64,000 nucleotides of DNA from an uncultured Flavobacteriaceae bacterium (GCA_947494715.1 CANLWG010000009.1:1405-65404); one strand, 5' to 3'; shown: positions 4,633 through 62,043, counted from the stretch's first letter. A program made the numbers and translations. Notes: a model not told the origin generated them from the sequence alone.

Positions 4633-4663
4633 AAGAGTCTTGATCAGTTCAAGGCTCTTTTTT
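4633..4663 (+). terminator. Hairpin with T-tract in recA-trhO intergenic region
   Basis: aagagtcttga-tcagt-tcaaggctctt followed by tttt. Confidence 0.45.
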
Positions 4664-4771
4664 ATTAGTTTTATTAATGAAACATATGTTTTGGGAAAAC
4701 CCATAGGTAACGTCACTACTCGTTTCCTAACAGAGCCTCTTTCAATTGTTTTGGAGTTTTCCATATTATCT

Positions 4772-4779
4772 TACCTTTG
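4772..4779 (+). promoter_or_regulatory. Bacteroidetes -7 promoter element for trhO
   Basis: TACCTTTG matches TAnnTTTG, ~40 nt upstream of ATG. Confidence 0.6.
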
Positions 4780-4820
4780 TCCTTTAAAATCATTCTTTCA
4801 ACTTAAACTATTCGTATAGC

Positions 4821-5852: not shown

Positions 5853-6074
5853 CCTACAGAATTTTGAGATGTAGGTGACGATATATGCGAAATTTTAGCA
5901 GGCTCAAGCTTAATTTTTTCGCCTACCCAAACAGTGGCCATGATTTGAATAACTTTTCATCGAATTAAAAAATCACTACCTTTACATTTAAGTTAAATAT
6001 GAACCTTTTTTGATCGAGAATCCTGTGGATTTTAGTACTGTGAGGGCAAGTTCGGTCAAATCAAGATATTAAAT

Positions 6075-7232: not shown

Positions 7233-7710
7233 GAGTTTACTTGCCCTAACGGTTATGTTACTCTTTATTTCCTGTAATGACGCTTTGGTAAAAGCGGAAT
7301 ACAAAGCTACGGATAAAGGTTCCTGGAACAAGGAAAGCATCCTTGAATTTACATTTTCCGAAATGGATACCTTACGTTCCCATAATATGTTTATTAATGT
7401 AAGAAATGATGAGACCTTCCCTTACAGTAACCTCTTTTTGATAGCCGAACTCGATTTTCCTTCGGGACAGACCATAAAGGATACGTTGGAATATGAAATG
7501 GCCAGACCGGACGGGAGTTGGTTGGGCAAAGGTTATGGCAGTGTAAAAGAAAACAAATTATGGTATAAGGAGAACATCGTTTTTCCTTCCTCTGGCGTAT
7601 ATACTTTACGCTTGTCCCATGCTATGCGAAAAAACGGAAAAGTAGAGGGAATCATGAACTTGCAAGGAATAACGGATGTTGGTTTTCAAATTGAAAAAAG
7701 TGATCCATAG
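7225..7710 (+). CDS. gldH: Gliding motility lipoprotein GldH (start at ATG 7225)
   Basis: Lipobox FISC; YSNLFLI, DTLEYEMARPDGSWLGKG, GITDVG; conserved position between PSP1 gene and PBP1a. Confidence 0.9.
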   Translation: MLRSLLALTVMLLFISCNDALVKAEYKATDKGSWNKESILEFTFSEMDTLRSHNMFINVRNDETFPYSNLFLIAELDFPSGQTIKDTLEYEMARPDGSWLGKGYGSVKENKLWYKENIVFPSSGVYTLRLSHAMRKNGKVEGIMNLQGITDVGFQIEKSDP

Positions 7711-7713
7711 GTA

Positions 7714-10053
7714 ATGGCAAAAATGGTAAAGAAAAAGAACGACAAAGGATTTTTTAAATTCATAAAATGGTTCTGGATACTCTTTGCAACGGGAATTCTT
7801 TCTGTTGCCCTTCTTTTTTTATTGGCTTCTTGGGGATTTTTAGGGGAAATGCCCACCTTTGAGAGGCTGGAGAACCCACAGACCAATTTGGCCTCTGAAA
7901 TCATTTCCTCGGACGGTAAGACTTTGGGAAAATTCTATCTGGATGATAATCGTACCCCGGTACCCTTCGATAGCCTTCCGCAAAATTTGGTCGATGCCCT
8001 GGTAGCTACCGAGGATGCCCGTTATTTTAAACATTCGGGAATCGATGCTCGCGGAACACTTCGAGCCTTCATTTTCTTAGGAAAGAGAGGGGGGGCCAGT
8101 ACCTTAACACAGCAACTTTCAAAACTGCTTTTTACCAAAAGACCTTCTGGAGGGTTAGATCGTATTCTTCAAAAAATAAAGGAGTGGGTCATTGCCACTC
8201 GTTTGGAACGGCAATATACCAAAGAGGAGATCATTAAAATGTACATGGACCAATATGACTTTGGTTATGCCGCCGATGGAATACGATCGGCATCTAGAAT
8301 TTATTTTGGAAAGGAACCCAATGAGCTCAAAACAGAAGAGTCGGCAGTGTTGGTGGGAATGTTAAAGAATTCATCGCTCTATAATCCTATCCGGAGAGAG
8401 GAGCTTGTTTTCAATCGGAGAAATACCGTATTGGGGCAAATGGCCAAGTACGGATACCTTACCGAAGCGGAGAAAGATTCTTTGCAGGCTTTGGAAATGG
8501 ATATCAATTTTAGTCCGGAATCACATCGGGAAGGAATTGCCACTTACTTCAGAATGTATCTACAAGGCTTCATGAACAGATGGATAAAGAAAAATCCAAA
8601 ACCGGCCTTGGATGATGAAAGAGATCAATGGAACATTTATTTGGATGGCCTAAAGATTTATACGACCATAGACTCCCGTATGCAGCAAAATGCCGAAGAT
8701 GCCGTGGCAGAGCATATGAAGAATCTTCAGGCGGAATTCTTTAATCAGAATACTACCGAGAAGAACCCAACGGCCCCCTTTCTGGAGCTCTCCCAGGAGG
8801 AAACACAAGGAATCATTGAAAATGCCATGCAAAATTCGGCCCGTTGGAAGAAAATGAAAGCAGCGGGATCTTCTGAAAAAAAGATCAGGGAGTCGTTTAC
8901 CAAGCCGGCAGAAATGACGGTTTTTGACTGGAACAGCGATTCCCAGGAAAAGGATACCATAATGACACCATTGGACTCAATAAGGTATTACAAAACTTTT
9001 CTAAGGGCGGCTATGATGTCTATGGAACCCCAAACGGGCCATGTAAAAGCATGGGTTGGCGGAATCGATTACAAACATTTTCAATATGATAATGTTATCC
9101 AGGGTGCCCGGCAGGCGGGATCTACTTTTAAGCCTTTTATCTATGCCGCGGCCATTGACCAACTTCGATTATCCCCTTGCGATTCCTTACCGGATACGCA
9201 ATATTGCATTGAAGCCTTAAAACATGGTAATATGGAACCCTGGTGCCCCAAAAATTCGGACGGGAAATACTCTGGGCGGATGTACACCTTAAAAAAGGCT
9301 TTGGCCAATTCCATCAATACGGTTACCGCACAGTTGATCGATCGGGTGGGTCCCAAATCTGTGGTTTCTATAGTAAAGAATTTAGGGCTTACAAAAGAGA
9401 TTATGGAGGTTCCCGCCATTGCTCTGGGAACGCCTGACTTCAACGTATATGAGATGGTTGGGGCTTATGGCACTTTTGTGAACCAAGGGGTGTATGTGAA
9501 ACCGGTCATGGTCACCCGCATTGAAGATAAAAATGGAACCGTACTTTACGAATATGTACCAGAGACCAAAGATGTGCTCAGCAAGGATGTAGCTTATGCC
9601 ATGGTAGATCTGATGAAAGGTGTTACCGAAGGGGGCTCCGGAACCCGTCTGCGCCACAACTTTGCCAAAAACCAAACGGTATATAAGAAAGTTGTTACTG
9701 GATACCCTTATGGGTTTACCAATCCAATAGCAGGGAAAACCGGGACTACACAGAACCAAAGTGATGGTTGGTTTATGGGCATGGTACCCAACTTGGTCTC
9801 CGGTGTTTGGGTCGGTGGCGAAGAACGCTCTATCCATTTCGGGGGTCTAGCCTATGGCCAGGGAGCCTCCATGGCCTTACCTATTTGGGGCCTCTACATG
9901 AGAAAAAACTACGCCAATAAGGAACTGGGCGTATCCGAAGAGGATTTTCCGGAACCCGAAGAATTATCCATTAATGTGGACTGTACCAAGGTCAAGGAAG
10001 AATTGGAAAAGGAGGTTGATTCCGAGGACGACCTTGACGATCTTGACTTCTAA
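7714..10053 (+). CDS. Class A penicillin-binding protein (PBP1a; transglycosylase + transpeptidase)
   Basis: EDARY..HSGID, GASTLTQQL; SxxK STFK, SxN SIN, KTG motifs. Confidence 0.96.
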   Translation: MAKMVKKKNDKGFFKFIKWFWILFATGILSVALLFLLASWGFLGEMPTFERLENPQTNLASEIISSDGKTLGKFYLDDNRTPVPFDSLPQNLVDALVATEDARYFKHSGIDARGTLRAFIFLGKRGGASTLTQQLSKLLFTKRPSGGLDRILQKIKEWVIATRLERQYTKEEIIKMYMDQYDFGYAADGIRSASRIYFGKEPNELKTEESAVLVGMLKNSSLYNPIRREELVFNRRNTVLGQMAKYGYLTEAEKDSLQALEMDINFSPESHREGIATYFRMYLQGFMNRWIKKNPKPALDDERDQWNIYLDGLKIYTTIDSRMQQNAEDAVAEHMKNLQAEFFNQNTTEKNPTAPFLELSQEETQGIIENAMQNSARWKKMKAAGSSEKKIRESFTKPAEMTVFDWNSDSQEKDTIMTPLDSIRYYKTFLRAAMMSMEPQTGHVKAWVGGIDYKHFQYDNVIQGARQAGSTFKPFIYAAAIDQLRLSPCDSLPDTQYCIEALKHGNMEPWCPKNSDGKYSGRMYTLKKALANSINTVTAQLIDRVGPKSVVSIVKNLGLTKEIMEVPAIALGTPDFNVYEMVGAYGTFVNQGVYVKPVMVTRIEDKNGTVLYEYVPETKDVLSKDVAYAMVDLMKGVTEGGSGTRLRHNFAKNQTVYKKVVTGYPYGFTNPIAGKTGTTQNQSDGWFMGMVPNLVSGVWVGGEERSIHFGGLAYGQGASMALPIWGLYMRKNYANKELGVSEEDFPEPEELSINVDCTKVKEELEKEVDSEDDLDDLDF

Positions 10054-10153
10054 ATAGGGTAGCAGCACTCACTTGGAAATCAGCAGTACTTTGGAGTTTT
10101 GTGCTTTCCTATTTCCCAAATATCGAGTAACTTCATAACTCAATATTTACAAC

Positions 10154-10855
10154 ATGATACGTAAGACCGTTACCGATGCAAGAGAGGCTTTGCAGGGTGT
10201 AGAAGATGGAATGACCTTTATGCTTGGAGGTTTTGGCCTCTGTGGAATCCCGGAGAATGCCATTGCAGAGCTAGTACGCTTGGGGATTACTGACATTACC
10301 TGTATTTCCAATAATGCCGGCGTGGATGATTTTGGTTTGGGGCTACTTCTCCAAAAGCATCAGATAAAAAAAATGATTTCCTCCTATGTGGGAGAGAACG
10401 ATGAGTTTGAAAGACAAATGTTGAGTGGTGAACTGGAGGTAGAGCTTACCCCACAGGGAACCTTGGCGGAGAAATGCAGGGCAGCCCAAGCCGGATTCCC
10501 GGCATTCTATACTCCGGCGGGGTATGGAACCGAAGTGGCACAAGGAAAGGAAACTCGGGAATTTAACGGAAAAATGTACGTGTTGGAAGAAGCTTTTGAA
10601 GCGGATTTTGCTTTTGTAAAAGCTTGGAAAGGTGATGAGGCCGGGAACCTTATATTCAAGGGTACGGCACGTAACTTTAATCCTTGTATGTCCGGGGCGG
10701 CAAACATTACGGTAGCAGAGGTAGAGGAATTGCTTCCTGCGGGCAGCTTAGACCCCAATCAGATTCATGTTCCCGGAATATTTGTGCAACGGATATTTCA
10801 AGGAGAACATTATGAGAAGCGAATTGAACAGCGAACCGTCCTTAAGCGGACTTAA
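10154..10855 (+). CDS. scoA: 3-oxoacid CoA-transferase subunit A
   Basis: [24 protein letters not shown]. Confidence 0.95.
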
Positions 10856-10899
10856 TTTGAAGGTTGATCGATTTGAAAATTTGATGACATGAGAAATGA
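10853..10899 (+). repeat. Left array of degenerate ~8-nt repeats (ATTTGAAR-type) before four-helix-bundle gene
   Basis: atttgaag gttgatcg atttgaaa atttgatg; TGA recurs every 7-9 nt. Confidence 0.6.
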
Positions 10900-11254
10900 C
10901 AAAGACAACTTAGTTGTAAGGAAAACATTTGATTTTGCCTTGGATATTATTGATTACACAGAACAATTGAGATCTCTTCATAAATTTGAAATGTCTTCTC
11001 AACTTTTCAAAAGTGGAACATCTATTGGAGCCAACACATGGGAGGCCCAAAATGCTGAAAGTACTGCTGATTTTATCCATAAATTCAAGATTGCAGCTAA
11101 GGAGGCGGATGAAACTAAGTTTTGGGTTGAACTCTGTAAGGCTTCAAAACATTATCCTGATCCCCAGGAGACATTATTTTCTGACCTAAAATCGATAATC
11201 CGGATTATTTCCAAAATTATTGGTTCCAGTAAACATGGCCAATTTTCAAATTAG
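10889..11254 (+). CDS. Four helix bundle protein (TIGR02436/IVP-like family)
   Basis: QLFKSGTSIGANTWEAQNAESTADFIHKFKIAAKEADETKFW. Confidence 0.93.
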   Translation: MRNDKDNLVVRKTFDFALDIIDYTEQLRSLHKFEMSSQLFKSGTSIGANTWEAQNAESTADFIHKFKIAAKEADETKFWVELCKASKHYPDPQETLFSDLKSIIRIISKIIGSSKHGQFSN

Positions 11255-11277
11255 CTCACTTTCAGATTCTCAAATCA
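11241..11277 (+). repeat. Right array of degenerate ~8-nt repeats, inverted relative to left array
   Basis: aattttca aattagct cactttca gattctca; 11241-11251 is the exact reverse complement of 10871-10881. Confidence 0.6.
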
Positions 11278-11282
11278 ATACT

Positions 11283-11936
11283 ATGTTAGATAAGAACGGA
11301 ATAGCGAAACGAATAGCACAAGAAGTCAAGGATGGTTACTATGTGAACTTGGGCATTGGCATTCCGACTTTGGTAGCCAATTTTGTACGCAATGATATCA
11401 ATGTTGAATTCCAAAGTGAAAACGGCGTATTGGGGATGGGCCCTTTTCCCTATGAGGGCGAAGAAGATGCGGATATCATCAACGCCGGGAAACAGACCAT
11501 TACCACTCTGCCCGGAGCGTCTTTTTTTGATTCGGCCACCAGCTTTGGGATGATTCGTGGACAACATGTGGACCTTACTATTTTGGGTGCGATGGAAGTG
11601 GCAGAGAACGGTGATATCGCCAATTGGAAGATTCCTGGAAAAATGGTGAAAGGAATGGGTGGTGCCATGGATTTAGTAGCAAGTGCGGAAAACATCATCG
11701 TGGCAATGATGCACACCAATAAGGTAGGCAAATCCAAGCTTTTAAAACGCTGTACCCTTCCGCTTACCGGAGTGGGCTGCGTCACTAAGATAGTAACCAA
11801 CCTGGCGGTATTGGAAGTTACTTCAAAAGGATTTATGTTGCTGGAACGAGCCCCGGGAGTGAATGTGGATGATATAAAAATGGCTACCGAAGGTACTCTG
11901 GTCGTTGAAGGAAATATTCCGGAAATGGCGCTTTAA
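11283..11936 (+). CDS. scoB: 3-oxoacid CoA-transferase subunit B (start at ATG 11283)
   Basis: YVNLGIGIPT, FQSENG catalytic Glu, KGMGGAMDL. Confidence 0.95.
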   Translation: MLDKNGIAKRIAQEVKDGYYVNLGIGIPTLVANFVRNDINVEFQSENGVLGMGPFPYEGEEDADIINAGKQTITTLPGASFFDSATSFGMIRGQHVDLTILGAMEVAENGDIANWKIPGKMVKGMGGAMDLVASAENIIVAMMHTNKVGKSKLLKRCTLPLTGVGCVTKIVTNLAVLEVTSKGFMLLERAPGVNVDDIKMATEGTLVVEGNIPEMAL

Positions 11937-12067
11937 AAATTAAGCATAAGTACAAATACCAAGTTCAAGAAAAGGGCATGCTCTTTCAAAAATACCCGCT
12001 TGCCGACTCTGGATTTTCATTCTCATTTCCAATGCTCTTATAATGGCAATACAGCTCAAAGAAGCAT

Positions 12068-12163
12068 TTCATCGAAGAAAATGACCGTTCATCCTTTTCA
12101 CAACATTTTGTGAAGACTTCACAACAATAGTTTCCATTTAGCACAGCACTAAAGTACCTTTAC
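12068..12163 (+). promoter_or_regulatory. Three-box activator-type promoter
   Basis: TTCATCGA 12068-75; TTCACAAC 12097-104 and 12118-125 (21-bp period); TACCTTTAC 12155-163; same layout recurs three times at 55-61 kb. Confidence 0.7.
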
Positions 12164-12225
12164 AGAACAAATCAATTCAAAAGTTTCAGACCCCAAATCT
12201 GACTTTTTTCAAAACCCACAAATCT

Positions 12226-12333
12226 ATGGAAGCCCAAATGAACCATGCTCCGACCAAAGAAGAAATTCAAGTGTACAAAAACGATTTTTTTAGCGGTATT
12301 GTCATGTTGACCAAGAAACTATTTATGCTATAG
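12226..12333 (+). CDS. Small protein, 35 aa (MEAQMNHAPTKEEIQVYKNDFFSGIVMLTKKLFML), absent from ORF track
   Basis: ATG in A/C-rich context; own promoter upstream and terminator downstream. Confidence 0.55.
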   Translation: MEAQMNHAPTKEEIQVYKNDFFSGIVMLTKKLFML

Positions 12334-12354
12334 CATTTTGGTAAAAATTCTAAA

Positions 12355-12394
12355 AAAAGGAGCGGTATAACCTACACTGCTCCTTTTCTTTTTT
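12355..12394 (+). terminator. Rho-independent terminator
   Basis: aaaaggagcggt / actgctcctttt stem followed by T-tract. Confidence 0.75.
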
Positions 12395-12421
12395 CTAATT
12401 TTGGGTATGGGCCCAAACCAA

Positions 12422-12955
12422 ATGCATTTACTTCTTCAAAAATGCAACCAAAATGATTTGGATGAACTTGTTGAACTGTCCATAAGAACATTCAAGGATG
12501 CCTTTGAAGCGGATAACGACCCAGAAGACTTTAAAGACTACCTTCGTACTGCATTTCATAGGGATACCTTGTTGGCCGAGCTGCAGGATAAGGATGTAAG
12601 TTTCTACTTTGTTAAGGTTGATACCGAGACGGCGGGTTATTTTAAGCTGAATGAAGATTTGGCCCAGACCGAAGTAAAGTCGGGCAATAGCATCGAATTG
12701 GAACGCATCTATGTTCTAAATACCTTCCAAGGCTCAGGAATAGGCTCATGGATGCTTGACGAAATAAAGCAAATCGCTTTCGAAAAAGGAAAACAATTTC
12801 TTTGGTTGGGGGTATGGGAGAAGAATCGTAAGGCCATTAGGTTTTACCAGAGGCTGGGATTTACAAAATTCGGGATCCATCCCTATTTCATTGGAAAGGA
12901 CGAACAGACCGATTGGCTAATGCGGTTTGATTTGATTAATTTGGATCCTGAATAA
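12422..12955 (+). CDS. GNAT family N-acetyltransferase (PaiA-like)
   Basis: IELERIYV, FQGSGIG, WLGVWEKNRKAIRFYQRLGF; start likely ATG 12422. Confidence 0.92.
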   Translation: MHLLLQKCNQNDLDELVELSIRTFKDAFEADNDPEDFKDYLRTAFHRDTLLAELQDKDVSFYFVKVDTETAGYFKLNEDLAQTEVKSGNSIELERIYVLNTFQGSGIGSWMLDEIKQIAFEKGKQFLWLGVWEKNRKAIRFYQRLGFTKFGIHPYFIGKDEQTDWLMRFDLINLDPE

Positions 12956-12966
12956 ATTCTTTTGAA

Positions 12967-14121
12967 ATGAAGTATCCCATCTTGATTCTTTTTTATCTTT
13001 TTTCCTTTGGAACCCTTTTCGCCCAGAAAGACTATTATTTTCCTGAAAGAAACGAGGTATGGGAGATCAAGGCCCCAAACACTTTTGAAATCGATGAAAA
13101 GAAACTTCAAGAAGTAGTTGATTTTGCCTGGGAGAATGAATATTCGGGCTCAAGGGATCTCCGTATTGCCATTCTTAAAGGTTTTGAACGAGAACCTTTT
13201 CATGAAATTTTAGGCCCCACCAAAAAACGAGGTGGCCCTGCCGGAATGATTTTGAAAAATGGTTATATCATAGCCCATTGGGGGGACACAAAAAGGGTAG
13301 ACATGACCTTTAGCGTTACCAAGAGCTTTTTGAGTACGGTAGCGGGACTTGCGGAGGACCGCGGACTGATTGCCCAAACCAATGATAAGGTAGCGAACTA
13401 TATCTGGGATGGCACTTTTGATGGGGAACACAACGGAAAAATTACCTGGGAGCATTTGTTGCAACAGAACTCCGATTGGTCTGGCGAACTTTGGGGAGGA
13501 AAGGACTGGGCCGATCGCCCGCCTCGGGAAGGGGATTTGGATGATTGGAAATTCCGAAAGCTCAATGAACCGGGAACCGTAATGGAATACAATGATGTAC
13601 GCGTTAATGTGTTGGCCTATGCATTGACCCATGTATGGCGAAAACCCTTGCCTATGGTACTTAAGGAGAATATAATGGATAAAATAGGTGCTTCTACGAC
13701 CTGGAGATGGCATGGGTATGAGCATGCATGGACGGAAATCGATGGCGTTCGGATGAAATCGGTTACGGGGGGCGGACACTCGGGGGCAGGAATGTTTATT
13801 AGCACGGAGGATATGGCCCGGTTTGGTTTGTTGTTCCTCAATCAAGGAAAATGGGAGGATCAACAACTTATTAGCGAAGATTGGATAAAAAAGGCCATTT
13901 TACCTTCTAAACCCAATGTAAATTATGGTTATATGTGGTGGTTGAACAAAAAAGGCGATCGGCATTGGGAGGGGCTTTCCGAAGACATTTATTACGCAGC
14001 TGGCTTTGGAGGCAACTACATTGTTATTGACCGTGAGAACGATTTGGTGGTGGTAATGCGTTGGTTGGAGCCCAGTAAAATAGGAGAGTTTATGACTATG
14101 CTTAGCGCAGCCTTGAAATAG
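12967..14121 (+). CDS. Serine hydrolase, beta-lactamase/esterase family, secreted
   Basis: SVTK (SxxK), YND, AAGFGGN; signal peptide. Confidence 0.9.
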   Translation: MKYPILILFYLFSFGTLFAQKDYYFPERNEVWEIKAPNTFEIDEKKLQEVVDFAWENEYSGSRDLRIAILKGFEREPFHEILGPTKKRGGPAGMILKNGYIIAHWGDTKRVDMTFSVTKSFLSTVAGLAEDRGLIAQTNDKVANYIWDGTFDGEHNGKITWEHLLQQNSDWSGELWGGKDWADRPPREGDLDDWKFRKLNEPGTVMEYNDVRVNVLAYALTHVWRKPLPMVLKENIMDKIGASTTWRWHGYEHAWTEIDGVRMKSVTGGGHSGAGMFISTEDMARFGLLFLNQGKWEDQQLISEDWIKKAILPSKPNVNYGYMWWLNKKGDRHWEGLSEDIYYAAGFGGNYIVIDRENDLVVVMRWLEPSKIGEFMTMLSAALK

Positions 14122-14124
14122 ACC

Positions 14125-15285
14125 TTATTGAACGCGCCTTAGAATTTCGGTGGCCTTTTCTAAAGTATCTTCAGTTTTGGCAAAACAAAATCGCAACACT
14201 TTATCATCTCGGTTATTCAAATTGAAGGAGGATATTGCAATACTTGCCAATTTATAATCTATTATTAACCGTTGTGCTAGAATTTCGTCCGGTTCATTGG
14301 TTATTCCCGTATAATCCAGCAATTGAAAATAAGTGCCTTGGGAAGGTGTAAACTTAAATTTGGAATCGGAAAGCCTACTTAGGAAATAGTCCCTTTTTTG
14401 TTGATAAAAGTCCTTCAACTCTAAATAATGCCCTTCATTTTTCAAGTATTCCGCCATAGCTCGCTGCACGGGATGATCCACACAGAAAACGGCGAACTGG
14501 TGCGTCTTTCGGAATTCATGCATCAGTTCGGCTGGTGCGGCACAATAGCCCATTTTCCATCCGGTTACATGAAAAGTCTTCCCAAAAGAGGCGCAGACAA
14601 AACTACGAGAGGCCAAATCATCCAAGCGCGAAGCACTTTCATGTTCCTTTCCATCAAAAACAATATGCTCGTATACCTCATCACTGACTAAAATAATATT
14701 AGTATCCCGTAGACTTTCCTGGAGCTGCAACATATCGGTTTTGGAGAAAATACGTCCGCTGGGATTATGTGGGGTGTTGATGACCACCATCCTGGTCTTG
14801 GAGGTAATTTTAGTTCGGAATTCTTCCCAATCCACTTGATAATCCTTCTCCCTCAACTGGATAAGAACCGGGATGCCGCCGTTTACTTCAATGGCCGGCT
14901 CGTAACAATCATAGGCTGGCTTCAGTACAATGACCTCGTCACCAGGGTGGACAAATGCCGTGATTGCCGTAAAAATTGCCTGAGTGGCCCCGACGGTTAC
15001 CGTAATTTCTTTTTCGGGATCATAACTTCGGCCATGAAGTTTTTCTATTTTCTCCGATATGATTTCCCGAAGTCCATAATACCCCTGCATAGCCGCATAT
15101 TGGTTATGACCGTGTAGCATGGCATCGGATACCAAACCCATTAACTTTCTATCGGCTTCAAAATTGGGAAATCCCTGGGAAAGGTCAATGGCCTTATGTT
15201 TTCTGGCCAGATTGCCTACGGTAGTGAAAATGGTAGTCTTTGCATGGGGGAGTTTGGAGGGGATATTAGTCTTAAAAATTGCCAT
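14125..15285 (-). CDS. PLP-dependent class I aminotransferase (YbdL/methionine aminotransferase-like)
   Basis: DLSQGFPNF, NTPHNPSG, SDEVYEH, SFGKTFHVTGWKMGY; start likely ATG 15285. Confidence 0.93.
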   Translation of the reverse strand: MAIFKTNIPSKLPHAKTTIFTTVGNLARKHKAIDLSQGFPNFEADRKLMGLVSDAMLHGHNQYAAMQGYYGLREIISEKIEKLHGRSYDPEKEITVTVGATQAIFTAITAFVHPGDEVIVLKPAYDCYEPAIEVNGGIPVLIQLREKDYQVDWEEFRTKITSKTRMVVINTPHNPSGRIFSKTDMLQLQESLRDTNIILVSDEVYEHIVFDGKEHESASRLDDLASRSFVCASFGKTFHVTGWKMGYCAAPAELMHEFRKTHQFAVFCVDHPVQRAMAEYLKNEGHYLELKDFYQQKRDYFLSRLSDSKFKFTPSQGTYFQLLDYTGITNEPDEILAQRLIIDYKLASIAISSFNLNNRDDKVLRFCFAKTEDTLEKATEILRRVQ

Positions 15286-15348
15286 GGACACGAGTATTGC
15301 CTTAAAAATAGGCAATTTAGTACTTACTACTTCTGTGAAAAGAGATCT

Positions 15349-15630
15349 TTACTTTGAAGTTTGTAAAAATTTATGCAGGTAGTGCTTGTCTCCCTCTGCC
15401 AAAAGCTGTCTTGCCAAAGAATTGTCAAAGGCGATCCGTAGAAGCTCTTCAATTGCCCTGGAATTTGATTTTGTAAGACTGTTGGTTCTATAAATTACGT
15501 CTCTAATGGTTGAAAAACTTACACCGGTAGCTGTAGCCACATTGGCAAAATCGTCTTTGGTAGTGTTTCTTCTTAATGTCAGTGATAATTTCTCATTAAT
15601 CGGTTTTCCGTAATCCTGGTCCGTAAACAT
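15349..15630 (-). CDS. Small HTH protein, Cro-like
   Basis: ANVATATGVSFSTIRDVI helix-turn-helix pattern; divergent from S24 repressor. Confidence 0.65.
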   Translation of the reverse strand: MFTDQDYGKPINEKLSLTLRRNTTKDDFANVATATGVSFSTIRDVIYRTNSLTKSNSRAIEELLRIAFDNSLARQLLAEGDKHYLHKFLQTSK

Positions 15631-39719: not shown

Positions 39720-39988
39720 TTTGTCGATTTTTTTTAGAGGTCGGAAAGGTAATCCAAAATTACTTTTTGTACCAAGCATAACTCCTTCCGGCCATATTCC
39801 GGATTGTTCGAAAGGTTGCACTTTATCGATTTTTTGAAAAGAAGTGCCCGCCGTACCCAATAAAAAACAGAGCTAAGACGTTGTATGCTATATAATGCTC
39901 AACAGACATTGTAAGCAGTTAACCCAAATCCAGAATTTCGTGTTCATTTGACCCCAATCATCGAATACGACTTGATAAACCTACAAGT

Positions 39989-40207
39989 ATGAAAAAGTTT
40001 TTTTGCAATCTTTTTGGCCACCATTATTCCGTGTCCAAGAAAGTCACACATCACATTAAGGAATATAAATGCATCCATTGTGGTAGAGAGGTTACCACGG
40101 ATGTCAGCGGAAATCTTTCGACCTTGACTCCAGAGTTACAGGATATTAACAAGACCTTGGAAGGTCTTTATCAAAAAAGACATAGAGCTGCACAGCAAGT
40201 AGCTTAA
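39989..40207 (+). CDS. Small DUF1660-like protein with Cys/His motif
   Basis: FCNLFGHHY...YKCIHCG. Confidence 0.8.
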   Translation: MKKFFCNLFGHHYSVSKKVTHHIKEYKCIHCGREVTTDVSGNLSTLTPELQDINKTLEGLYQKRHRAAQQVA

Positions 40208-54276: not shown

Positions 54277-55209
54277 ATGAAAAAGTTAGTATTTGGGCTG
54301 GCAACAGCCCTTATGGTTTCTGTTGCCTCGGCACAGACACTTGAAGAGCTCAAGACCGAGCAGGCGGCCAAAAAGGATTCCGTAGCAGACATTCAGGGGA
54401 GGGTAGATGCCCTGCAGGGACAAATAGATGCCTTCCCGGGTTGGAAAAAGGGCGCCTTTGGAACCATAGGAGCGAACATTTCAGGATTCAACAATTGGTA
54501 TGCCCAGGGAACTCCCAACAACTCTTCCGGGAATATTGGGGCTACGCTCAATGCCTTTGCTAATCTAAACAAAGAAAAGTTTTTTTGGAGGAATTCAGGA
54601 AACATTAATTTGCAATGGGTAAAGTTGGATGATAAGGATAGTGATACGGATGACGAAAGTTTCAACGGCACTACGGATGTTTTTAACCTTACATCCCTTT
54701 ATGGGTATAAATTGAGCGAAAAATTTGCAATTTCGGCTTTGGGCGAATATCGAACCACGATTATAAACAATTTCAACGATCCAGGTTATTTGGATTTGGG
54801 AATCGGGGCCACGTGGACGCCCATTACGGATATGGTAGTGGTTATCCATCCGCTCAACTACAACTTTGTATTCAGTAGTGAGGACGATATTTATGAATCC
54901 TCGACCGGGGCCAAAATCTTGGTAGATTATACCCGACAAATAGGGGATATAAATTTCAAGACTAATTTTTCCACCTTCCAAAGCTATAAAAGTGGAGACC
55001 TTTCTAACTGGACATGGGTCAATTCCTTTGGATATACTTTATGGAACGGTATTGGTCTTGGATTTGAATTCGGTCTTAGGAACAACAAACAAGAAGCTTT
55101 GGATTATGCCATAAACAAGGCACCTACCCCCGATCCGGATGCGACTTTTGATAGCATTGACAATGATTTGCAGACCTACTGGATTTTTGGACTCAACTAT
55201 TCCTTTTAA
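54277..55209 (+). CDS. DUF3078 family outer-membrane protein
   Basis: Signal peptide, short coiled coil, WKKG..G, NNWYAQG; beta-strands ending NYSF; TAAATTTG promoter at 54236-43. Confidence 0.85.
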   Translation: MKKLVFGLATALMVSVASAQTLEELKTEQAAKKDSVADIQGRVDALQGQIDAFPGWKKGAFGTIGANISGFNNWYAQGTPNNSSGNIGATLNAFANLNKEKFFWRNSGNINLQWVKLDDKDSDTDDESFNGTTDVFNLTSLYGYKLSEKFAISALGEYRTTIINNFNDPGYLDLGIGATWTPITDMVVVIHPLNYNFVFSSEDDIYESSTGAKILVDYTRQIGDINFKTNFSTFQSYKSGDLSNWTWVNSFGYTLWNGIGLGFEFGLRNNKQEALDYAINKAPTPDPDATFDSIDNDLQTYWIFGLNYSF

Positions 55210-55234: not shown

Positions 55235-55264
55235 AAAAGACCCGACAATTTTGTCGGGTCTTTT
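55235..55264. terminator. Bidirectional terminator, perfect 14-bp inverted repeat
   Basis: aaaagacccgacaa-tt-ttgtcgggtctttt. Confidence 0.85.
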
Positions 55265-55345
55265 CTGTTAAGTAGGATACATTTAATTTGTTTGCACAGT
55301 CAAATAAAATCGAACTTTATATTCGGTAAAGATTTAGGTGGTGCC

Positions 55346-55365
55346 ATCCTGATAGCTATCAGGAT
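55346..55365. repeat. Perfect 20-bp palindrome (REP-like)
   Basis: atcctgatagctatcaggat. Confidence 0.85.
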
Positions 55366-55554
55366 CAATTTCCGTTAAGTTACGTTCTCTTCTGGGACAA
55401 TCATTAAACCTTTAAATACATTGCGAATGTAGTTTCATAGCATATGATGCTTAAATTTTTGTTGTGAAAGGAATAGAATTTGTTGTGAACAACGTTAAAA
55501 TGTGTTGTATCATCGATGAAATGCATAGAAAAGCACTTTAAACCTTTTTAAAAA

Positions 55555-55817
55555 TAAAAAAGCCCGGACTGTGGGGTTCGGGCCATTTTTTAGCTAAGTA
55601 GGTTATTGTAAAATTTGGACTAAGCTTTGTAGGTTAGAATTTTGGCTTGGGAAAACCTCCATTCTTTTCGGTTAAGTTCAAGGTGTCGATTTGGGGTCAA
55701 CACTATCACTTAATTACAATGTAAATGTAGTACGGATATGGGATTGTTCTAAATTATTGTTGTGAACCGATCCTAATTTGTGGTGAAATTTTTAACGGTC
55801 TTGTTTTATCGATGAAT
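55555..55817 (-). repeat. 263-bp direct repeat copy 1 (promoter + 19-codon sORF 55603-55662 + terminator)
   Basis: About 15 differences from 60541-60802 by manual alignment; sORF MEVFPSQNSNLQSLVQILQ. Confidence 0.92.
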
Positions 55818-55929
55818 AGCACTTTTATCTATTTGGAAACCATACTTTTTCAAATTGGGACTGTGGTATTAGTATTTAAGGCGGAACAGATCTAGTATTG
55901 TAAAATTAAGTACCTTGTAGAAATAGCGA

Positions 55930-58872
55930 ATGGAGATGAAACAATTACTTCTCCCCCCCTTATTATTTTTTTCTTCTTTTTTGATTTCGCAATCAAAAGT
56001 AGACAGTCTTCAATTGGGATTTGAAAATGCCCAAGAGGATACTGTCAAAATCCAGCTACTTCATGAGCTTTATTATGAGTTTGAAAATCGGGTTCCCCAA
56101 AGAGCCAGTGAAACGGCATTGAAAGCTTTAAGAATGGCAGAACGATCTGGTAATGGAGAATTACAGATCAAGAGCATTACCATATATGGAGACTTTTTGT
56201 ATTCCCAGTCCCAATATGATTCGGCCATAACCTTATATAACAATGCCTTGGAACTGGCACGAAAAAACCTTTCCATACTCGGAGAAACAGAGGCTCTTTT
56301 CGGATTGGGAAACACGTATTATAGAAAAGGCAATTTTGAAAAAGCAAAAGAGTTTCACCTGGAAAAATTAAATATTGCTAAAAAAGCAAAGGACAATGAA
56401 GGTATTGCCGGTTCATATAACAGTTTGGGTCTCATATATTCTGAACAGGGAGATTATACCAAAGCCATGGAATACTTTACTAAGTCATCCAAAATGTATC
56501 AGGAAGTAGGCCATTTAAAATACTACGGCATTACTTTAATGAGCATTGGTATGGTACAGCGTATGCTGGGCAATTATGAAATGGCGAAAAACTATTACCA
56601 AAAAAGCGACAGCATTCATATAAAAACAGATAATCTACTTGGGAGAGCCTACGTTTTTCATAATCTGGCCATAATCAATAAAAATACCGGAGCCTTTGAA
56701 GAAGCCATGATATATAATAACAAAGCACTGGAGAGCTTCCAAAAATTGGGGGATATAAAAAAAGTTGGGGAAGTATTTTACAACTTGGCCAGCATTCATA
56801 TGGAACAGGAGAGTTTTGCCAAGGCCATAAGCCATTATCATGAATCGCTTGATATTTCCCTAAAGGCCAATGACTCATTAATGATTGCTTTTTCCAACTG
56901 CGCCATAGGGGAATGCCATTTGCACCTTAAGGATTTCAATAAGGCAGAAAAACATTTATTGGAAGCGGTTAAAGTAGCCCAGGCTATTAATTTATATCCA
57001 ATTGAGATGGATGGGTACGAATATCTTTCCACAGTATACGAAACCCAGGGCGATTTTACCAAGGCTTATAAAAGCAAAAGCAAGTATTTAGTTTTAAGGG
57101 ATAGCCTGTACACCAAGGAAAAAAGAGAACTGGCCAATGAAATTGAGGCCAAATACCAAAATGAACAAAAGACAAAGGAAATTGCCCTTTTGGCATCCGA
57201 GAAGGATTTACAGACATTACAGTTGCAAAAACGGATAAACGAACGGAATGGTATTATTGCCTTTTCCTTGATCGTTCTCCTCTTGGCCGCACTAGTGTAC
57301 AATCAATATCGAATAAAGCAAGGAGCTAACAAACGCCTTCATGAATTGGACCGGTTAAAGTCCAATTTTTTCACCAATGTTTCGCACGAATTTAGGACAC
57401 CGTTAACATTGATCAAAGGACCCATTGAACAGCTAGAGCAAAATCCCGATGAAAAGCTGGGTGTGCCTACTATCAAGATGATGCGTCGTAACGCCAATCG
57501 CTTGCTCAATATGGTAAATCAGTTATTGGACCTTTCAAAAGTTGATGAAGGCAGCTTAAAACTAACGCCTACAGAAGGGGATGTGTATAAATGTTTGAGG
57601 GCTGCGGCATCCTCTTTCAATTCACATGCCGCCCAACGTTATATCGATTATAAGGTACGGATTCCGCAGGGTTTGTTATGGGCTTCCTTTGATTGGGATA
57701 AGCTGGAGAATATAGTTTATAATTTACTCGGGAATGCTTTCAAATTTAGCGAAGACGGATCAGGGATTTCCTTTCTTGTATCCTATAACGGCCAGGACCT
57801 TCAAATCGAGGTAGGTGATTCCGGAAAAGGTATTCCAGAGGAAAGGTTGCCTTTTATTTTTGATCGCTTCTATCAGGTAGACAGTAGTACCACTAAGGAA
57901 AAGGAAGGTTCGGGAATTGGGCTTTCGCTTTCCAAAGATTTGGTTGAGCTTATGGATGGGACAATTACCGTGATAAGCGAAGTAGGTAAAGGTACTTTTT
58001 TTACCATCCATTTGCCCATTTTGGAAATTCGGACAAGGCCCAAAGATGTGACGGAAACTAATGTGCCTTCAGATATAACGGAGGTAAGGCCCCAACCTTT
58101 CCAGCTGACCAAAGGAGATAAGAGAAATCTACCCAGCATTTTGTTGGTAGAGGATAATAGTGATATGAGACACTTCATAGGAGGGCAATTGATAAAAAAA
58201 TATAAGGTCAAAGAAGCCACAGATGGCAAGAGTGGGCTGCAAAAAGCGATTGCGGATTCTCCCGAATTGATTATCACCGACCTGATGATGCCCAAAATGG
58301 ACGGATTGGAACTTTGCAGAAAATTGAAGACCGATTTACGTACGAGCCATATTCCTGTAATAATGTTGACAGCCAAGGCAGGAATGAGCAATAAAATTGA
58401 AGGGTTGGAAACCGGGGCGGATGACTATCTCACCAAACCCTTTGATGCCAAGGAACTCATGGCGCGAACTAAAAATCTAATTGAACAACGGCAAAAACTA
58501 AGAGAACTCTATAGCACCAAAGAAACCCATATAGACCCTAAAAGGATTACCCTCACCTCTATTGATCAGAGGTTTTTGGAAGAGGTTTTGTCCCTTTTAG
58601 AAGAAAATTATTCGGACTCAAGTTTTGGGGTACCTAAAATGCAGACGGCCTTGGCCATGAGCAAGACCCAATTACATCGGAAATTAAAAGCATTGACGAA
58701 CGAGGCCCCTGGGGAGCTACTCCGGAACTTTCGTCTAAAAAGGGCCGCACAATTATTATCCCAGAAAGCGGATAACGTTACCCAGATTGCCTATAAAGTA
58801 GGTTTTAACAATCTCTCCTATTTCGCCAAATGCTTTAAGGAGCTCTATGGGGTGGCACCTTCTTCCTATTAA
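55930..58872 (+). CDS. Hybrid two-component sensor (TPR sensor, TM, HisKA, HATPase, receiver, AraC HTH)
   Basis: TPRs; NVSHEFRTPL; DKEGSGIGL-like G-box (EKEGSGIGL); LIITDLMMP; KVGFNNLSYFAKCFK. Confidence 0.96.
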   Translation: MEMKQLLLPPLLFFSSFLISQSKVDSLQLGFENAQEDTVKIQLLHELYYEFENRVPQRASETALKALRMAERSGNGELQIKSITIYGDFLYSQSQYDSAITLYNNALELARKNLSILGETEALFGLGNTYYRKGNFEKAKEFHLEKLNIAKKAKDNEGIAGSYNSLGLIYSEQGDYTKAMEYFTKSSKMYQEVGHLKYYGITLMSIGMVQRMLGNYEMAKNYYQKSDSIHIKTDNLLGRAYVFHNLAIINKNTGAFEEAMIYNNKALESFQKLGDIKKVGEVFYNLASIHMEQESFAKAISHYHESLDISLKANDSLMIAFSNCAIGECHLHLKDFNKAEKHLLEAVKVAQAINLYPIEMDGYEYLSTVYETQGDFTKAYKSKSKYLVLRDSLYTKEKRELANEIEAKYQNEQKTKEIALLASEKDLQTLQLQKRINERNGIIAFSLIVLLLAALVYNQYRIKQGANKRLHELDRLKSNFFTNVSHEFRTPLTLIKGPIEQLEQNPDEKLGVPTIKMMRRNANRLLNMVNQLLDLSKVDEGSLKLTPTEGDVYKCLRAAASSFNSHAAQRYIDYKVRIPQGLLWASFDWDKLENIVYNLLGNAFKFSEDGSGISFLVSYNGQDLQIEVGDSGKGIPEERLPFIFDRFYQVDSSTTKEKEGSGIGLSLSKDLVELMDGTITVISEVGKGTFFTIHLPILEIRTRPKDVTETNVPSDITEVRPQPFQLTKGDKRNLPSILLVEDNSDMRHFIGGQLIKKYKVKEATDGKSGLQKAIADSPELIITDLMMPKMDGLELCRKLKTDLRTSHIPVIMLTAKAGMSNKIEGLETGADDYLTKPFDAKELMARTKNLIEQRQKLRELYSTKETHIDPKRITLTSIDQRFLEEVLSLLEENYSDSSFGVPKMQTALAMSKTQLHRKLKALTNEAPGELLRNFRLKRAAQLLSQKADNVTQIAYKVGFNNLSYFAKCFKELYGVAPSSY

Positions 58873-58897
58873 CACTTTCCAAATTCCTGTTCATTCG

Positions 58898-58924
58898 GGA
58901 ACTATGCTGTTACCATCTGGAACC
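58898..58924 (+). promoter_or_regulatory. Tandem GGAACY boxes 21 bp apart (candidate AraC-domain binding site)
   Basis: ggaact 58898-903 and ggaacc 58919-924 between the sensor gene and its downstream gene. Confidence 0.45.
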
Positions 58925-59010
58925 TTACTATTAGCCATTCGAGCACGCAAGCCATAGTTTTGACATATCTGGTCCCCTAAAATCAATTATTCATTCTAAA
59001 GGAGGTAACT

Positions 59011-60009
59011 ATGGAATTAACAAGACAAAACCGAAGGGGTATTGTATTCAATGCGCTGTACAAATTAATTCCCCAGGCCTTACTGTTAATCGCTTTTTTT
59101 GCGATGATAATATGTTTAACGCTATTATTGAGTTGTAGCAACGGGGATGATACAACGGGTTCGCAAGGTGCCGGAATAGGTGATGTAATGGGGTCGGTAG
59201 AAGATGAGAATGGGAACCCATATCCCAATACTGTAGTAAAACTTTCTACGGGTGCAGCTTTCATCGAAACAAAAACCGATTCCAATGGAAATTTTGACTT
59301 TAATGATGTTGCCGGGGGAACACATGAAGTTACCATAAGTCTTCCATTATCTACAGAGGGAGTTACCAATACCTCCACCGCCATTAATGTTCAGGACAAT
59401 CAAACGATTACGGTTGATTTTGTCATCCGCCCTTTGCAAGTAAAGGCACACTTAAATTTTGGTAATGTACAATTACTGGAGGAAATAAAAGATGAGAACG
59501 GAAACACACCTACTGATCCCGATGAGCCCTTGTATGCTGAGAATATCTTTGATGAACCATTGGGTCTTTTAACGGCAATCAAGACTCCGGATGGCGAACA
59601 TGTTACACTATCCGAATTTAAAACGGCCCAAGGAAATCTGATGGTGCATTGCAATGGAGACACTTCCATTGTCGAAATTGCCTTAGAAGGTATGATACCT
59701 AACGGAACCTATACATTTTGGCTCGCCTATCTCAATAAAACAAGAAGCGTGGGCGAGCCCATAGACTTTGCAAATGATTTTGTCAATTTCACAAACCCTC
59801 CCATTGGATCTGCGTCAGGTACGGAAAATATAGTTGTAGCTACTGAAGATGGAACCATTAACACATCACTTCAACATACTTCCTGCATTCTAACGGACGA
59901 GGTTGCTCTTGTTATTCCTGTGCTGTACCATATCAATGGAAAGACGTTTGGAGGTGGACATGTGCCGGATCCCGAGGAAATGGTTCAAATGTTGGCTTAC
60001 TTTCAATGA
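59011..60009 (+). CDS. Lipoprotein with carboxypeptidase-regulatory-like (Ig-like) domain and uncharacterised C-terminal domain
   Basis: Lipobox LSC; GSVEDENGNP...TDSNGNFDFNDV; C-term GMIPNGTYTFW, LYHINGKTFG. Confidence 0.8.
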   Translation: MELTRQNRRGIVFNALYKLIPQALLLIAFFAMIICLTLLLSCSNGDDTTGSQGAGIGDVMGSVEDENGNPYPNTVVKLSTGAAFIETKTDSNGNFDFNDVAGGTHEVTISLPLSTEGVTNTSTAINVQDNQTITVDFVIRPLQVKAHLNFGNVQLLEEIKDENGNTPTDPDEPLYAENIFDEPLGLLTAIKTPDGEHVTLSEFKTAQGNLMVHCNGDTSIVEIALEGMIPNGTYTFWLAYLNKTRSVGEPIDFANDFVNFTNPPIGSASGTENIVVATEDGTINTSLQHTSCILTDEVALVIPVLYHINGKTFGGGHVPDPEEMVQMLAYFQ

Positions 60010-60063
60010 TTGGCAGGGTCAAATAAAATTCAATAGTTCCCAAAATATAACATCATTTAAAAA

Positions 60064-60543
60064 TTGAAGAACATGGAAATGAAAAGAAACAAAGAAGCGC
60101 GTATTGTTTTGAATACAGTACAAAGAGTTATGGCAACCTTTCTACTTGTAATGGTTTTAGCCAATTGCAGCAAAGATGATGCCGCTCCAGAAAGTTCTAT
60201 TAGGCTGGGTGCCTTGAGTCTTTCCGAGAATGGGGATTGCAATCACAGCAGTGGGGTAACGGGAACCTCATTTGGAATTTTGATTCCATATAGCGGTACT
60301 CAGGACGATACGCTTATCCGAATATTATATAAACTTATCCCTGAAGGAGGGGATGCAATTGAGCGTACAGCAAATTATAATGATTTTTCCTTAAAGGATG
60401 GAAGCGGGGAAATGACATGGAACTCCTGTTTGCGTTTTTTTGATGTGAGCTTTATTGATTTGGAAATACGTATAGAAACTGCGGATGGGATAATAAGCAG
60501 TGTGTCCAAAATAAAGATTAACAAACCCGATGGTGCCAATTAA
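60064..60543 (+). CDS. Hypothetical lipoprotein
   Basis: Lipobox LANC-SKDD; start possibly ATG 60073. Confidence 0.75.
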   Translation: MKNMEMKRNKEARIVLNTVQRVMATFLLVMVLANCSKDDAAPESSIRLGALSLSENGDCNHSSGVTGTSFGILIPYSGTQDDTLIRILYKLIPEGGDAIERTANYNDFSLKDGSGEMTWNSCLRFFDVSFIDLEIRIETADGIISSVSKIKINKPDGAN

Positions 60544-60802
60544 AAAAGCCCGGACTGTGAGGTTCGGGCTTTTTTTAGCTAAGTAGGTTATTGTAAAATT
60601 TGGACTAAGCTTTGTAGGTTAGAATTTTGGTTTGGGGAAACCTCCATTCTTTTCGGTTAAGTTCAAAGTGCTGGTTTGGGGTCAACACTATCACTTAATT
60701 ACAATGTAAATGTAGTACGGATATGGGACTGTTCTAAATTATTGTTGTGAACCGATCTTAATTTGTAGTGAAAATTTTAACGGTCTTATTTCATCGATGA
60801 AT
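60541..60802 (-). repeat. 262-bp direct repeat copy 2 (promoter + 19-codon sORF 60588-60647 + bidirectional terminator)
   Basis: Near-identical to 55555-55817; sORF MEVSPNQNSNLQSLVQILQ; terminator aaaaaagcccggac...gttcgggcttttttt. Confidence 0.92.
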
Positions 60803-60831
60803 GACACCCTTTTTTAATAAAAAGTAGCTTT

Positions 60832-62043
60832 CTAGTATTGATCTAGATGTTCCGGATAGAGAAAATTGTTGTAGGGGAATCTACTTACATGGATTTCCCT
60901 GACGGCATTATACACCTTACTCCGAAACACATCCAGATTATCTTTGTTCAGGGCGGAAATGAAGAGCACGTTATCGCCCAACCGCTGCATCCATGTCCGT
61001 TCCCATTCCTCCATAGTAAAATGTCTTGAAGTCCTTTCGGTAACCAAATCGTCTTCATCTAGGGTCTCATGTGAATATTGGTCTATTTTATTGAAAACCA
61101 TTATCATTGGCTTTTCCGCACTATCAATTTCACCTAAAATTTGATTTACAGAATCTATATGCTCCTCAAATTGGGGATGGGAGATATCCACTATGTGCAG
61201 CAATAGATCCGCTTCCCTTACCTCGTCCAGGGTGCTTTTAAAACTTTCCACCAATTGGGTAGGAAGCTTCCGAATGAATCCTACCGTATCGCTCAATAAA
61301 AATGGAAGGTTGCCAATGACCACTTTCCGTACCGTGGTATCCAAAGTGGCAAAAAGTTTGTTCTCGGCAAAAACATCGCTTTTACTTATCACGTTCATTA
61401 ATGTCGATTTCCCGACGTTGGTATAGCCTACCAAGGCTACGCGTACAAGGGAGCCCCGGTTACCGCGTTGGGTCTCCATCTGCTTATCTATCTTGGTCAG
61501 TTTCTTTTTTAATAGGGAAATCCGGTCGCGAACTATACGACGGTCGGTTTCAATTTCCGTTTCGCCCGGACCGCGCATTCCAATGCCTCCACGTTGACGC
61601 TCTAAGTGTGTCCATAGGCCGGTAAGTCTAGGTAAAAGATATTCATATTGCGCAAGCTCCACTTGGGTACGGGCATAACTGGTCTGTGCGCGTTGGGCAA
61701 AAATATCCAGGATAAGACCGGTGCGATCCAGGATTTTGCAACGTAATAATTTTTCGATATTGTTCTGCTGGGCAGGGGTTAGCTCATCGTCAAAAATAAC
61801 AGACCCTATTTCGTGCTCTTTAACATAGGCCTCAACCTCCTTCATTTTTCCGCTACCTATATAAGTCTTAGGATTGGGGACCTCTACACGTTGCACAAAA
61901 CGTTTGGTTACCTCTCCACCGGCGGTGTAGGTCAAAAACTCCAGTTCATCCAGATATTCGGTTACCTTTTCCTCATTTTGCGCTCTATTGATGACACCGA
62001 TCAAAACGGCCTGCTCATAATCTATGTGCTGCTTTTCTAACAT
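60832..62043 (-). CDS. hflX: GTPase HflX
   Basis: RGPGETEIETDRR, GYTNVGKST, LFATLDTT, DTVGFI, NKID. Confidence 0.98.
   Translation of the reverse strand: MLEKQHIDYEQAVLIGVINRAQNEEKVTEYLDELEFLTYTAGGEVTKRFVQRVEVPNPKTYIGSGKMKEVEAYVKEHEIGSVIFDDELTPAQQNNIEKLLRCKILDRTGLILDIFAQRAQTSYARTQVELAQYEYLLPRLTGLWTHLERQRGGIGMRGPGETEIETDRRIVRDRISLLKKKLTKIDKQMETQRGNRGSLVRVALVGYTNVGKSTLMNVISKSDVFAENKLFATLDTTVRKVVIGNLPFLLSDTVGFIRKLPTQLVESFKSTLDEVREADLLLHIVDISHPQFEEHIDSVNQILGEIDSAEKPMIMVFNKIDQYSHETLDEDDLVTERTSRHFTMEEWERTWMQRLGDNVLFISALNKDNLDVFRSKVYNAVREIHVSRFPYNNFLYPEHLDQY

Follow-up and report, generated by a model that had tools for sequence, protein, structure and literature searches.

RecA-dependent deletion, amplification and gene conversion are known to occur between ribosomal RNA (rRNA) operons, between tuf genes and between copies of insertion sequences (ISs). 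Small regulatory RNAs (sRNAs) can likewise be found as multi-copy 'siblings' with repeated C-rich loops, as in RsaE/RoxS of the Firmicutes, the tandem Qrr RNAs and OmrA/B; in the Bacteroidota, which generally lack Hfq, sRNAs and their regulators are poorly charted beyond the gut Bacteroides. The locus described here lies in a 64,000-nucleotide (nt) stretch of DNA ('the window') from an uncultured Flavobacteriaceae bacterium (GCA_947494715.1, CANLWG010000009.1:1405-65404), and consists of a cassette of signalling and lipoprotein genes that is bracketed by two direct repeats, between a DUF3078 gene and hflX. A preliminary description of the window had proposed that the cassette entered by homologous recombination at a small resident unit, duplicating it in the process. 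In the explanation favoured here, the two repeats are instead paralogous copies of a conserved noncoding gene of ~280 bp, which likely specifies a minus-strand sRNA of ~165 nt.

Much of what had first been recorded about the repeats was borne out. A global alignment of 55555-55817 with 60541-60802 yields 248 identities in 263 positions (94.3%), while a repeat search pairs 55581-55831 with 60566-60816 at 92% (spacing 4985) and the hairpin part 55552-55590 with 60538-60576. The two copies are the only ones in the organism's own 5.97-Mb assembly (in a BLAST search with copy 1, the second aligns at 94% over 266 nt, E=2e-113), and Pfam and open reading frame (ORF) analysis place between them, as claimed, a TPR hybrid sensor gene and two lipoprotein genes, with DUF3078 and hflX outside. 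The reported absence of an integrase or transposase was also confirmed: Pfam showed no recombinase domain in any ORF between 51.1 and 63.8 kb, and a tblastn search of the window with Bacteroidota tyrosine integrase and IS transposase gave no match. The arrangement is not an assembly artefact, a risk that had been raised at the outset, since the independent assembly of Ulvibacterium marinum CCMM003 (G006), which is ~99% related to the present genome (G000), has the same structure. Directly to the left of copy 1 there is one more tandem copy, which has diverged ('type A', 55235-55551; nhmmer E=1.6e-10); the two copies of the repeat itself ('type B') are termed B-left and B-right below.

Each repeat corresponds to one whole noncoding unit, not to an insertion scar. 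In an alignment of 40 copies, the minus-strand order is TTCATCGA, then two 9-nt direct repeats TTCACAACA with a 21-bp period, then TAATTTAG (the 'TTTAG box'), followed by a spacer of 19-20 nt that is constant in length and variable in sequence and by a TAnnTTTA box, extended to TA(nn)TTTACA. These boxes, the spacer and the -7 box are colinear in an alignment of 22 copies from ~10 genera, and they resemble the -33 and -7 (TAnnTTTG) elements recognized by Bacteroidota sigma-A, of which the flavobacterial -7 consensus has been described (PMC9723704). On the 3' side of the -7-like box lie GTAATTAAGTGA...CCCCAAATC...GAACTTAAC, one or, in some copies, two further hairpins with the same CCCCAAA loop, two ACCTAC motifs and a terminator, in which a GC hairpin is preceded by an A-run and followed by a T-run. 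With a profile built from the Ulvibacterium copies, nhmmer recovers full-length units of ~270 nt, all in the same orientation, in every related locus.

Several features of the region downstream of the promoter-like boxes bear on its predicted transcript. In the terminator, and likewise in the stems that carry the CCCCAAA loops, the sequence changes from copy to copy while pairing is kept, and the outer helix of stem-loop SL1 is 96% paired, with variation that leads mostly to G-U pairs on the minus strand (a pattern that exceeds shuffles only modestly, at 30/500). The predicted 165-nt minus-strand RNA folds with z=-2.76, none of 200 shuffles being as good, against z=-1.14 for the plus strand. 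The direction of the promoter, and with it the choice of the minus strand of the units, is fixed by a paralogous module at 12.1 kb, where the same promoter and leader drive a conserved small open reading frame (sORF) of 35 amino acids. No ORF conserved across genera was found inside the unit, so that the usual hallmarks of a gene for a trans-acting sRNA, namely promoter-like boxes, a Rho-independent terminator and the lack of a conserved ORF, are present together. On the basis of this architecture, the folding, the missing ORF and the promoter direction, the units are read as candidate sRNA genes, most likely transcribed from the minus strand into an RNA of ~165 nt.

The distribution of the units indicates that they are old. 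A survey of 201 Flavobacteriaceae genera, using a covariance model of the promoter and SL1, identified units in 34 genera, at 1-7 copies per genome. Across a clade of the family, an array of units in the same orientation occupies the interval between DUF3078 and hflX, with or without cargo, and orthologous type-A units follow DUF3078 in six genera. Four congeners (G001, G003, G004 and G005) have DUF3078, type A, one type B and hflX, and no cassette. The order unit, hybrid two-component system (HTCS) sensor gene, CarboxypepD_reg lipoprotein gene, (further genes), unit, hflX recurs in a Saonia metagenome-assembled genome (MAG), in Maribacter halichondriae Hal144 and in five Flavobacteriaceae MAGs, and the same HTCS layout is seen in G198 and G127, two genomes that were sampled independently of the cassette; in all, a unit-cassette-unit layout is present in at least eight other genera. 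Comparison of DUF3078-hflX intervals across relatives, the check that the preliminary description had recommended, therefore does reveal different cargo: besides the HTCS type, a classical HisKA/HATPase histidine kinase with an OmpR-type response regulator and other genes (G058 and G046), two cassettes in series with one unit between them (G064 and L039), or none at all (G021, with A-B-hflX; G007 and G070, with A-B-B-hflX). Wherever the strand was determined, the cargo runs in the DUF3078 direction and the sensor gene is divergent from the left type-B unit. The dispersed units elsewhere likewise lie between convergent genes.

Some of these relatives show particular features of their own. The kinase/OmpR-type cargo (L053 of G058, 4061-8021; L056 of G046, 4151-7414) includes beta-lactamase-family or hypothetical genes. 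In the complete genome of Maribacter halichondriae (CP107030; L038, 3635-7583) a long-type HTCS is split into overlapping ORFs of 753 and 571 amino acids, which could be a frameshift or a pseudogene.

The cassette itself is as diverged as would be expected of a long-resident locus: its proteins in this genome share 55-78% identity with their counterparts in other genera, none of which is near enough to suggest a donor (best match 65-67%), and its GC content (0.38-0.42) is the same as that of the flanks. HTCS homologues are found at the same position in other genera, and the CarboxypepD_reg lipoprotein is represented in 17 related loci. Within the HTCS, the N-terminal sensor part is 34-60% identical or is replaced by a different, longer domain, as against 67-78% for the kinase-REC-AraC part. 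The region upstream of the HTCS gene is partly kept in a cassette at a second locus of G004 (blastn match in L035) and has a motif in common, in an alignment read by eye, with a GGnACTAnAGTGTTAGC stretch in four other loci. That second locus (L035; G004:C1:2135701-2155700, 4712-15506) holds an HTCS gene (64% identity), a CarboxypepD_reg protein gene (61%) and a lipoprotein gene, followed by a frameshifted fragment of the 3' end of hflX (8866-9031), with a tyrosine integrase (4712-5965) and a DDE transposase (13968-15506) in the vicinity; the hflX fragment implies that cassettes can be picked up at the hflX locus and carried elsewhere.

Evidence of exchange between the units is found in the repeats themselves. 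At 55594, 55619, 55636 and 55801-2, a site table places B-left-type states in the B-right copy of G000, where B-right of G006 and the outgroups are ancestral; they are read as short gene-conversion patches that are later than the G000/G006 split, and unit-to-unit recombination is thus demonstrated at the level of conversion. In a tree of the units, all Ulvibacterium type-B copies form one clade, and the flanking copies group within genomes in Saonia, Maribacter and Ulvibacterium, which points to concerted evolution. A crossover between the flanking units would yield exactly the empty sites of the congeners. Direct repeats of 94% identity, empty sites with one unit and copy-to-copy exchange, as expected of repeat-mediated homologous recombination, are therefore present, and the empty sites, the varied cargo and the gene conversion make such recombination a credible route of loss, gain or exchange. 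To this extent the mechanism first proposed for the locus stands. The accompanying claim that the unit was duplicated by the entry of the cassette is not supported, because the unit belongs to an old multi-copy family and tandem type-B copies exist free of cargo (the relatives G007 and G070 lack the cassette and yet have two copies, an outcome that the preliminary description had itself named as counting against its view), so that no such entry is needed for the duplication. As to the suggestion that the small unit may act as an integration hub, the units have the appearance of a recombination substrate and the cargo of the slot does vary between genera, but the units form an old family of sRNA-like genes and are not a by-product of insertion.

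The promoter of the unit points to a particular class of regulator. LytTR response regulators generally recognize paired repeats of 9-11 nt, spaced by 11-13 nt, upstream of a core promoter (PMC4847170), and the unit boxes (9 nt, a 12-nt spacer and 9 nt, abutting the -33-like box in the 22 aligned copies) fit this layout. A search with a promoter profile identified about a dozen further box-promoter sites in the same genome, and three of these, all TTCACAACA-box promoters, fall within the ~770 nt that separate a REC-LytTR response regulator gene (C1:878506-879198) from a TPR-HisKA_2 kinase gene (the whole at C1:878506-881940). Orthologues of the LytTR protein, at 87-94% identity, were found in 32 genomes, of which 31 also have units; in G051, G165, G161, G122 and G204, as in the present genome, the covariance model matches just downstream of the LytTR gene. 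These observations suggest that the unit promoter may be activated by this conserved REC-LytTR response regulator. The AraC-type HTCS of the cassette is not favoured as the factor that binds the boxes, since a paralogue of it at C2:397-400 kb has no boxes nearby.

Several short transcripts were predicted in association with this promoter type. One of the three box promoters on C1 precedes a short terminated predicted transcript. A second family of such transcripts, with a shared TTTTTTCATTTTCATATAGTGTTCTCGTAAAAGAG (C6:285087-285300 and C1:879261-879450), is preceded by box promoters of this type and may represent another sRNA of the same regulon.

The explanation that results from these comparisons (old sRNA-like paralogues with a LytTR-type promoter, turnover of a cassette by recombination between units, and concerted evolution of the copies) is given a probability of roughly two in three. 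Under this explanation, the conserved REC-LytTR regulator would activate the unit promoter, and RecA-type recombination between the flanking units would account for why some Ulvibacterium genomes have the 4.7-kb cassette and others do not, either by deletion in four congeners or by re-import from a congener (the G000/G006 lineage having kept or re-acquired it). The 94% identity of the copies would then be a product of concerted evolution rather than of a recent duplication made by insertion.

A number of observations pull the other way. With respect to the promoter, the -33 and -7 boxes each deviate from the Bacteroidota consensus at one position, and the co-occurrence of the LytTR gene with units could stem from one clade alone. 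With respect to the RNA, RNAalifold applied to a MAFFT alignment of whole units recovered the terminator alone, on either strand; the comparison of G-U with A-C extensions of the loop stems (229 versus 222 pairs) leaves the strands unseparated; and Rfam gave no match in the window at gathering thresholds (at E up to 10 there were sub-threshold matches only, driven by the terminator). With respect to the history of the cassette, parsimony on the HflX tree within Ulvibacterium favours one gain over at least three losses, and B-left sits on a long branch, with ~14 derived states of which none occurs in the single copies of the congeners, a pattern explained no less well by import of B-left together with the cassette than by loss in situ.

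These last points lead to the rival that survives best, which is nevertheless judged unlikely: circular or linear DNA carrying the cassette and one unit would have recombined, in the common ancestor of G000 and G006, with the unit already resident there, either by a Campbell-type single crossover or by homologous replacement from a congener, and the second copy would have been made at that time. The restriction of the cassette to the G000 and G006 pair among seven congeners makes a single gain the more parsimonious account; in the unit tree B-right is placed with the one type-B copy that G003 has, and B-left does not share its specific states with any empty-site copy; the cassette of G004, with its hflX 3' fragment beside a tyrosine integrase and an IS, illustrates that such cassettes are mobile; and the CarboxypepD_reg tree is incongruent with the HflX tree. 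However, the unit-cassette-unit layout is found at the same locus in many genera and so predates Ulvibacterium, and neither flanking copy is placed outside the Ulvibacterium clade of the unit tree, which means that the arrangement must already have existed in any donor, itself an Ulvibacterium. No cassette close enough to be a donor is known (the best match is 65-67% identical), the GC content of the cassette is not anomalous, and type-B tandems exist without cargo. The unit and HflX trees are compatible with either gain or loss within Ulvibacterium; in favour of loss or long residence are a layout that clearly predates the genus and two copies of Ulvibacterium type.

A second alternative, considered improbable, is that the units are leaders or remnants of small-protein genes, or landing pads at which transcription factors act on the DNA and from which no RNA of their own is made. 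It draws on the 12.1-kb module, in which the same box, -33/-7 and CCCCAAA-hairpin leader as in the units precedes the conserved 35-amino-acid sORF (ATG near 12227; MEAQMNHAPTKEEIQVYKNDFFSGIVMLTKKLFML, with a hydrophobic C-terminus and no Pfam family; ortholog in congener G005, L019), on a related motif before a gene at 39.9 kb, and on a 19-amino-acid ORF in type-B units of Ulvibacterium. That ORF was rejected as a conserved sORF: it is limited to some of the Ulvibacterium type-B copies and is missing or has a broken frame in G003 and throughout the other genera, although the nucleotide sequence stays conserved there. Also against this alternative, the sequence 3' of the promoter shows loops that are conserved, stems that vary and yet pair, and a terminator of its own.

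The weakest alternative, a mobile or site-specific element that captures cassettes (MITE-like, or att-like for a recombinase encoded elsewhere), is very improbable, for although the units are multi-copy, occur at a few dispersed loci (near genes for a TonB-dependent receptor, Sortilin-like/DJ-1 proteins and a desaturase) and always lie between convergent genes, they have, apart from the terminator hairpin, no terminal inverted repeats, they lack target-site duplications and a recombinase in the vicinity, their copy number is low (1-7), and the synteny of dispersed copies from genus to genus (G007 and G021, for instance, share the Sortilin/DJ-1 locus) speaks against recent mobility. Two related candidates did not fit: an integrase-mediated island with att repeats (no recombinase was found in the ORFs of 51.1-63.8 kb or by tblastn of the window, the repeat is a whole unit of 265-280 bp instead of an att site of ~15-60 bp, often the end of a tRNA gene, and the GC content matches the flanks), and a composite transposon or miniature inverted-repeat transposable element (MITE; the only inverted repeat is the terminator hairpin, and the same searches showed no transposase).

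Beyond the favoured explanation, a broader role for the locus can be imagined, in which the hflX-proximal sRNA array would serve as a docking site for homologous recombination at which signal-transduction cassettes of marine Flavobacteriaceae are exchanged, stacked or discarded, its sRNAs being under LytTR control and coupled to the divergent sensors. This proposal is speculative and on present evidence doubtful; if it is wrong, the finding shrinks to an ordinary case of repeat-mediated gain or loss. No description of the unit, or of a flavobacterial LytTR-sRNA regulon, was found in the literature. What appears to be new is, first, a candidate sRNA family whose promoter is of LytTR type and, second, the role of an array of this kind as a slot in which signalling cassettes vary. 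The family has no counterpart in Rfam, occurs in about one-sixth of the Flavobacteriaceae genera sampled and bears a recognisable promoter code suggestive of one particular, highly conserved LytTR two-component system, offering a testable regulon in cultivable marine flavobacteria. The paralogous small genes would also provide an example of recombination substrates through which a sensor cassette comes to be present, absent or different between close relatives.

Table 1. Coordinates of the features at the DUF3078-hflX interval and of the related module at 12.1 kb (positions in the window).
Feature	Position	Strand	Basis
Module paralogous to the units (promoter and leader, 35-aa sORF, terminator)	12060..12400	+	nhmmer match
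DUF3078 gene, left border	54277..55209	+	Pfam PF11276; syntenic in all relatives
Type-A unit, diverged paralogue of the repeat	55235..55551	-	nhmmer E=1.6e-10
Type A, terminator hairpin	55235-55264		
Type A, -7-like box	55424-55431		
Type A, direct-repeat boxes	55460-55468, 55481-55489		
Type A, TTCATCGA	55513-55520		
B-left (repeat copy 1), complete unit	55552..55831	-	repeat search, BLAST, nhmmer, alignment
B-left, predicted transcript	~55553-55717		
B-left, terminator hairpin	55556-55589		
B-left, -7-like box TACATTTA	55722-55729		
B-left, -33-like box	55749-55756		
B-left, direct-repeat boxes	55758-55766, 55779-55787		
B-left, TTCATCGA	55809-55816		
HTCS upstream region (HTCS divergent from B-left)	55832..55929	+	alignment, blastn
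Hybrid sensor-regulator (HTCS), TPR-HisKA-HATPase_c-REC-AraC-type HTH, 980 aa	55930..58872	+	Pfam
CarboxypepD_reg-domain lipoprotein, 332 aa, lipobox LLSC	59011..60009	+	Pfam PF13620
Small lipoprotein, 159 aa, lipobox LANC, no Pfam family	60064..60543	+	
B-right (repeat copy 2), complete unit	60538..60816	-	repeat search, BLAST, nhmmer
B-right, hairpin	60542-60575		
B-right, -7-like box	60707-60714		
B-right, -33-like box	60734-60740		
B-right, direct-repeat boxes (second with one mismatch, by eye)	60743-60751, 60764-60772		
B-right, TTCATCGA	60794-60801		
hflX, right border, convergent	60832..62043	-	Pfam GTP-bdg_N, GTP-bdg_M, MMR_HSR1

At the right end of the cassette the features are tightly packed (Table 1). 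The stop codon of the small lipoprotein gene abuts the hairpin of B-right, which is placed to terminate both that gene and the unit. On the other side, the hflX stop codon and the upstream end of B-right are only 16 nt apart (60816-60832), with no terminator between them; transcripts of hflX may for this reason run through B-right to the shared hairpin, which would make B-right a possible source also of an RNA derived from the 3' untranslated region.

Unit-like motifs were also noted in the leader of the gene that starts at 39989 (39900-39995, plus strand), which contains ACATTGTAA, GACCCCAATC and AAACCTACAAGT directly before the ATG; no TTCACAACA boxes were seen upstream of this gene.

When the locus is set beside the systems that it most resembles, both likenesses and differences are evident. 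As in other cases of repeat-mediated recombination, direct repeats (~265 bp, 94% identity) flank the DNA that varies (4.7 kb), and one-copy empty sites and conversion patches are found; unlike the cases of rRNA operons, tuf genes and IS copies, the repeats here are small noncoding genes in a conserved array, and what lies between them is a signalling cassette that is variable among genera. The candidate RNAs recall the sibling sRNAs in that several paralogues exist, some of them in tandem, each with a promoter, a terminator and two to three hairpins that display the same C-rich loop; they differ in having no relation to those RNAs by sequence or in Rfam, and in belonging to a member of the Bacteroidota. 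The cassette's sensor, like the HTCS proteins of polysaccharide utilisation loci in Bacteroides, combines HisKA, HATPase, REC and AraC HTH domains in one polypeptide; it departs from them in that its N-terminal sensor is a TPR region instead of a periplasmic beta-propeller, and in that its partners are two lipoproteins, with no adjacent susC/susD. Finally, the promoter shares with those controlled by LytTR regulators (AgrA at P2/P3, ComE, PlnC and YpdB) the two 9-nt repeats with a 12-nt spacer immediately upstream of the core promoter (layout as in PMC4847170), and a REC-LytTR gene adjoins the same boxes; in contrast to those promoters, its sites are predicted ones, set in a Bacteroidota -33/-7 context, with a TTCACAACA consensus that is distinct from that of any characterised regulator.

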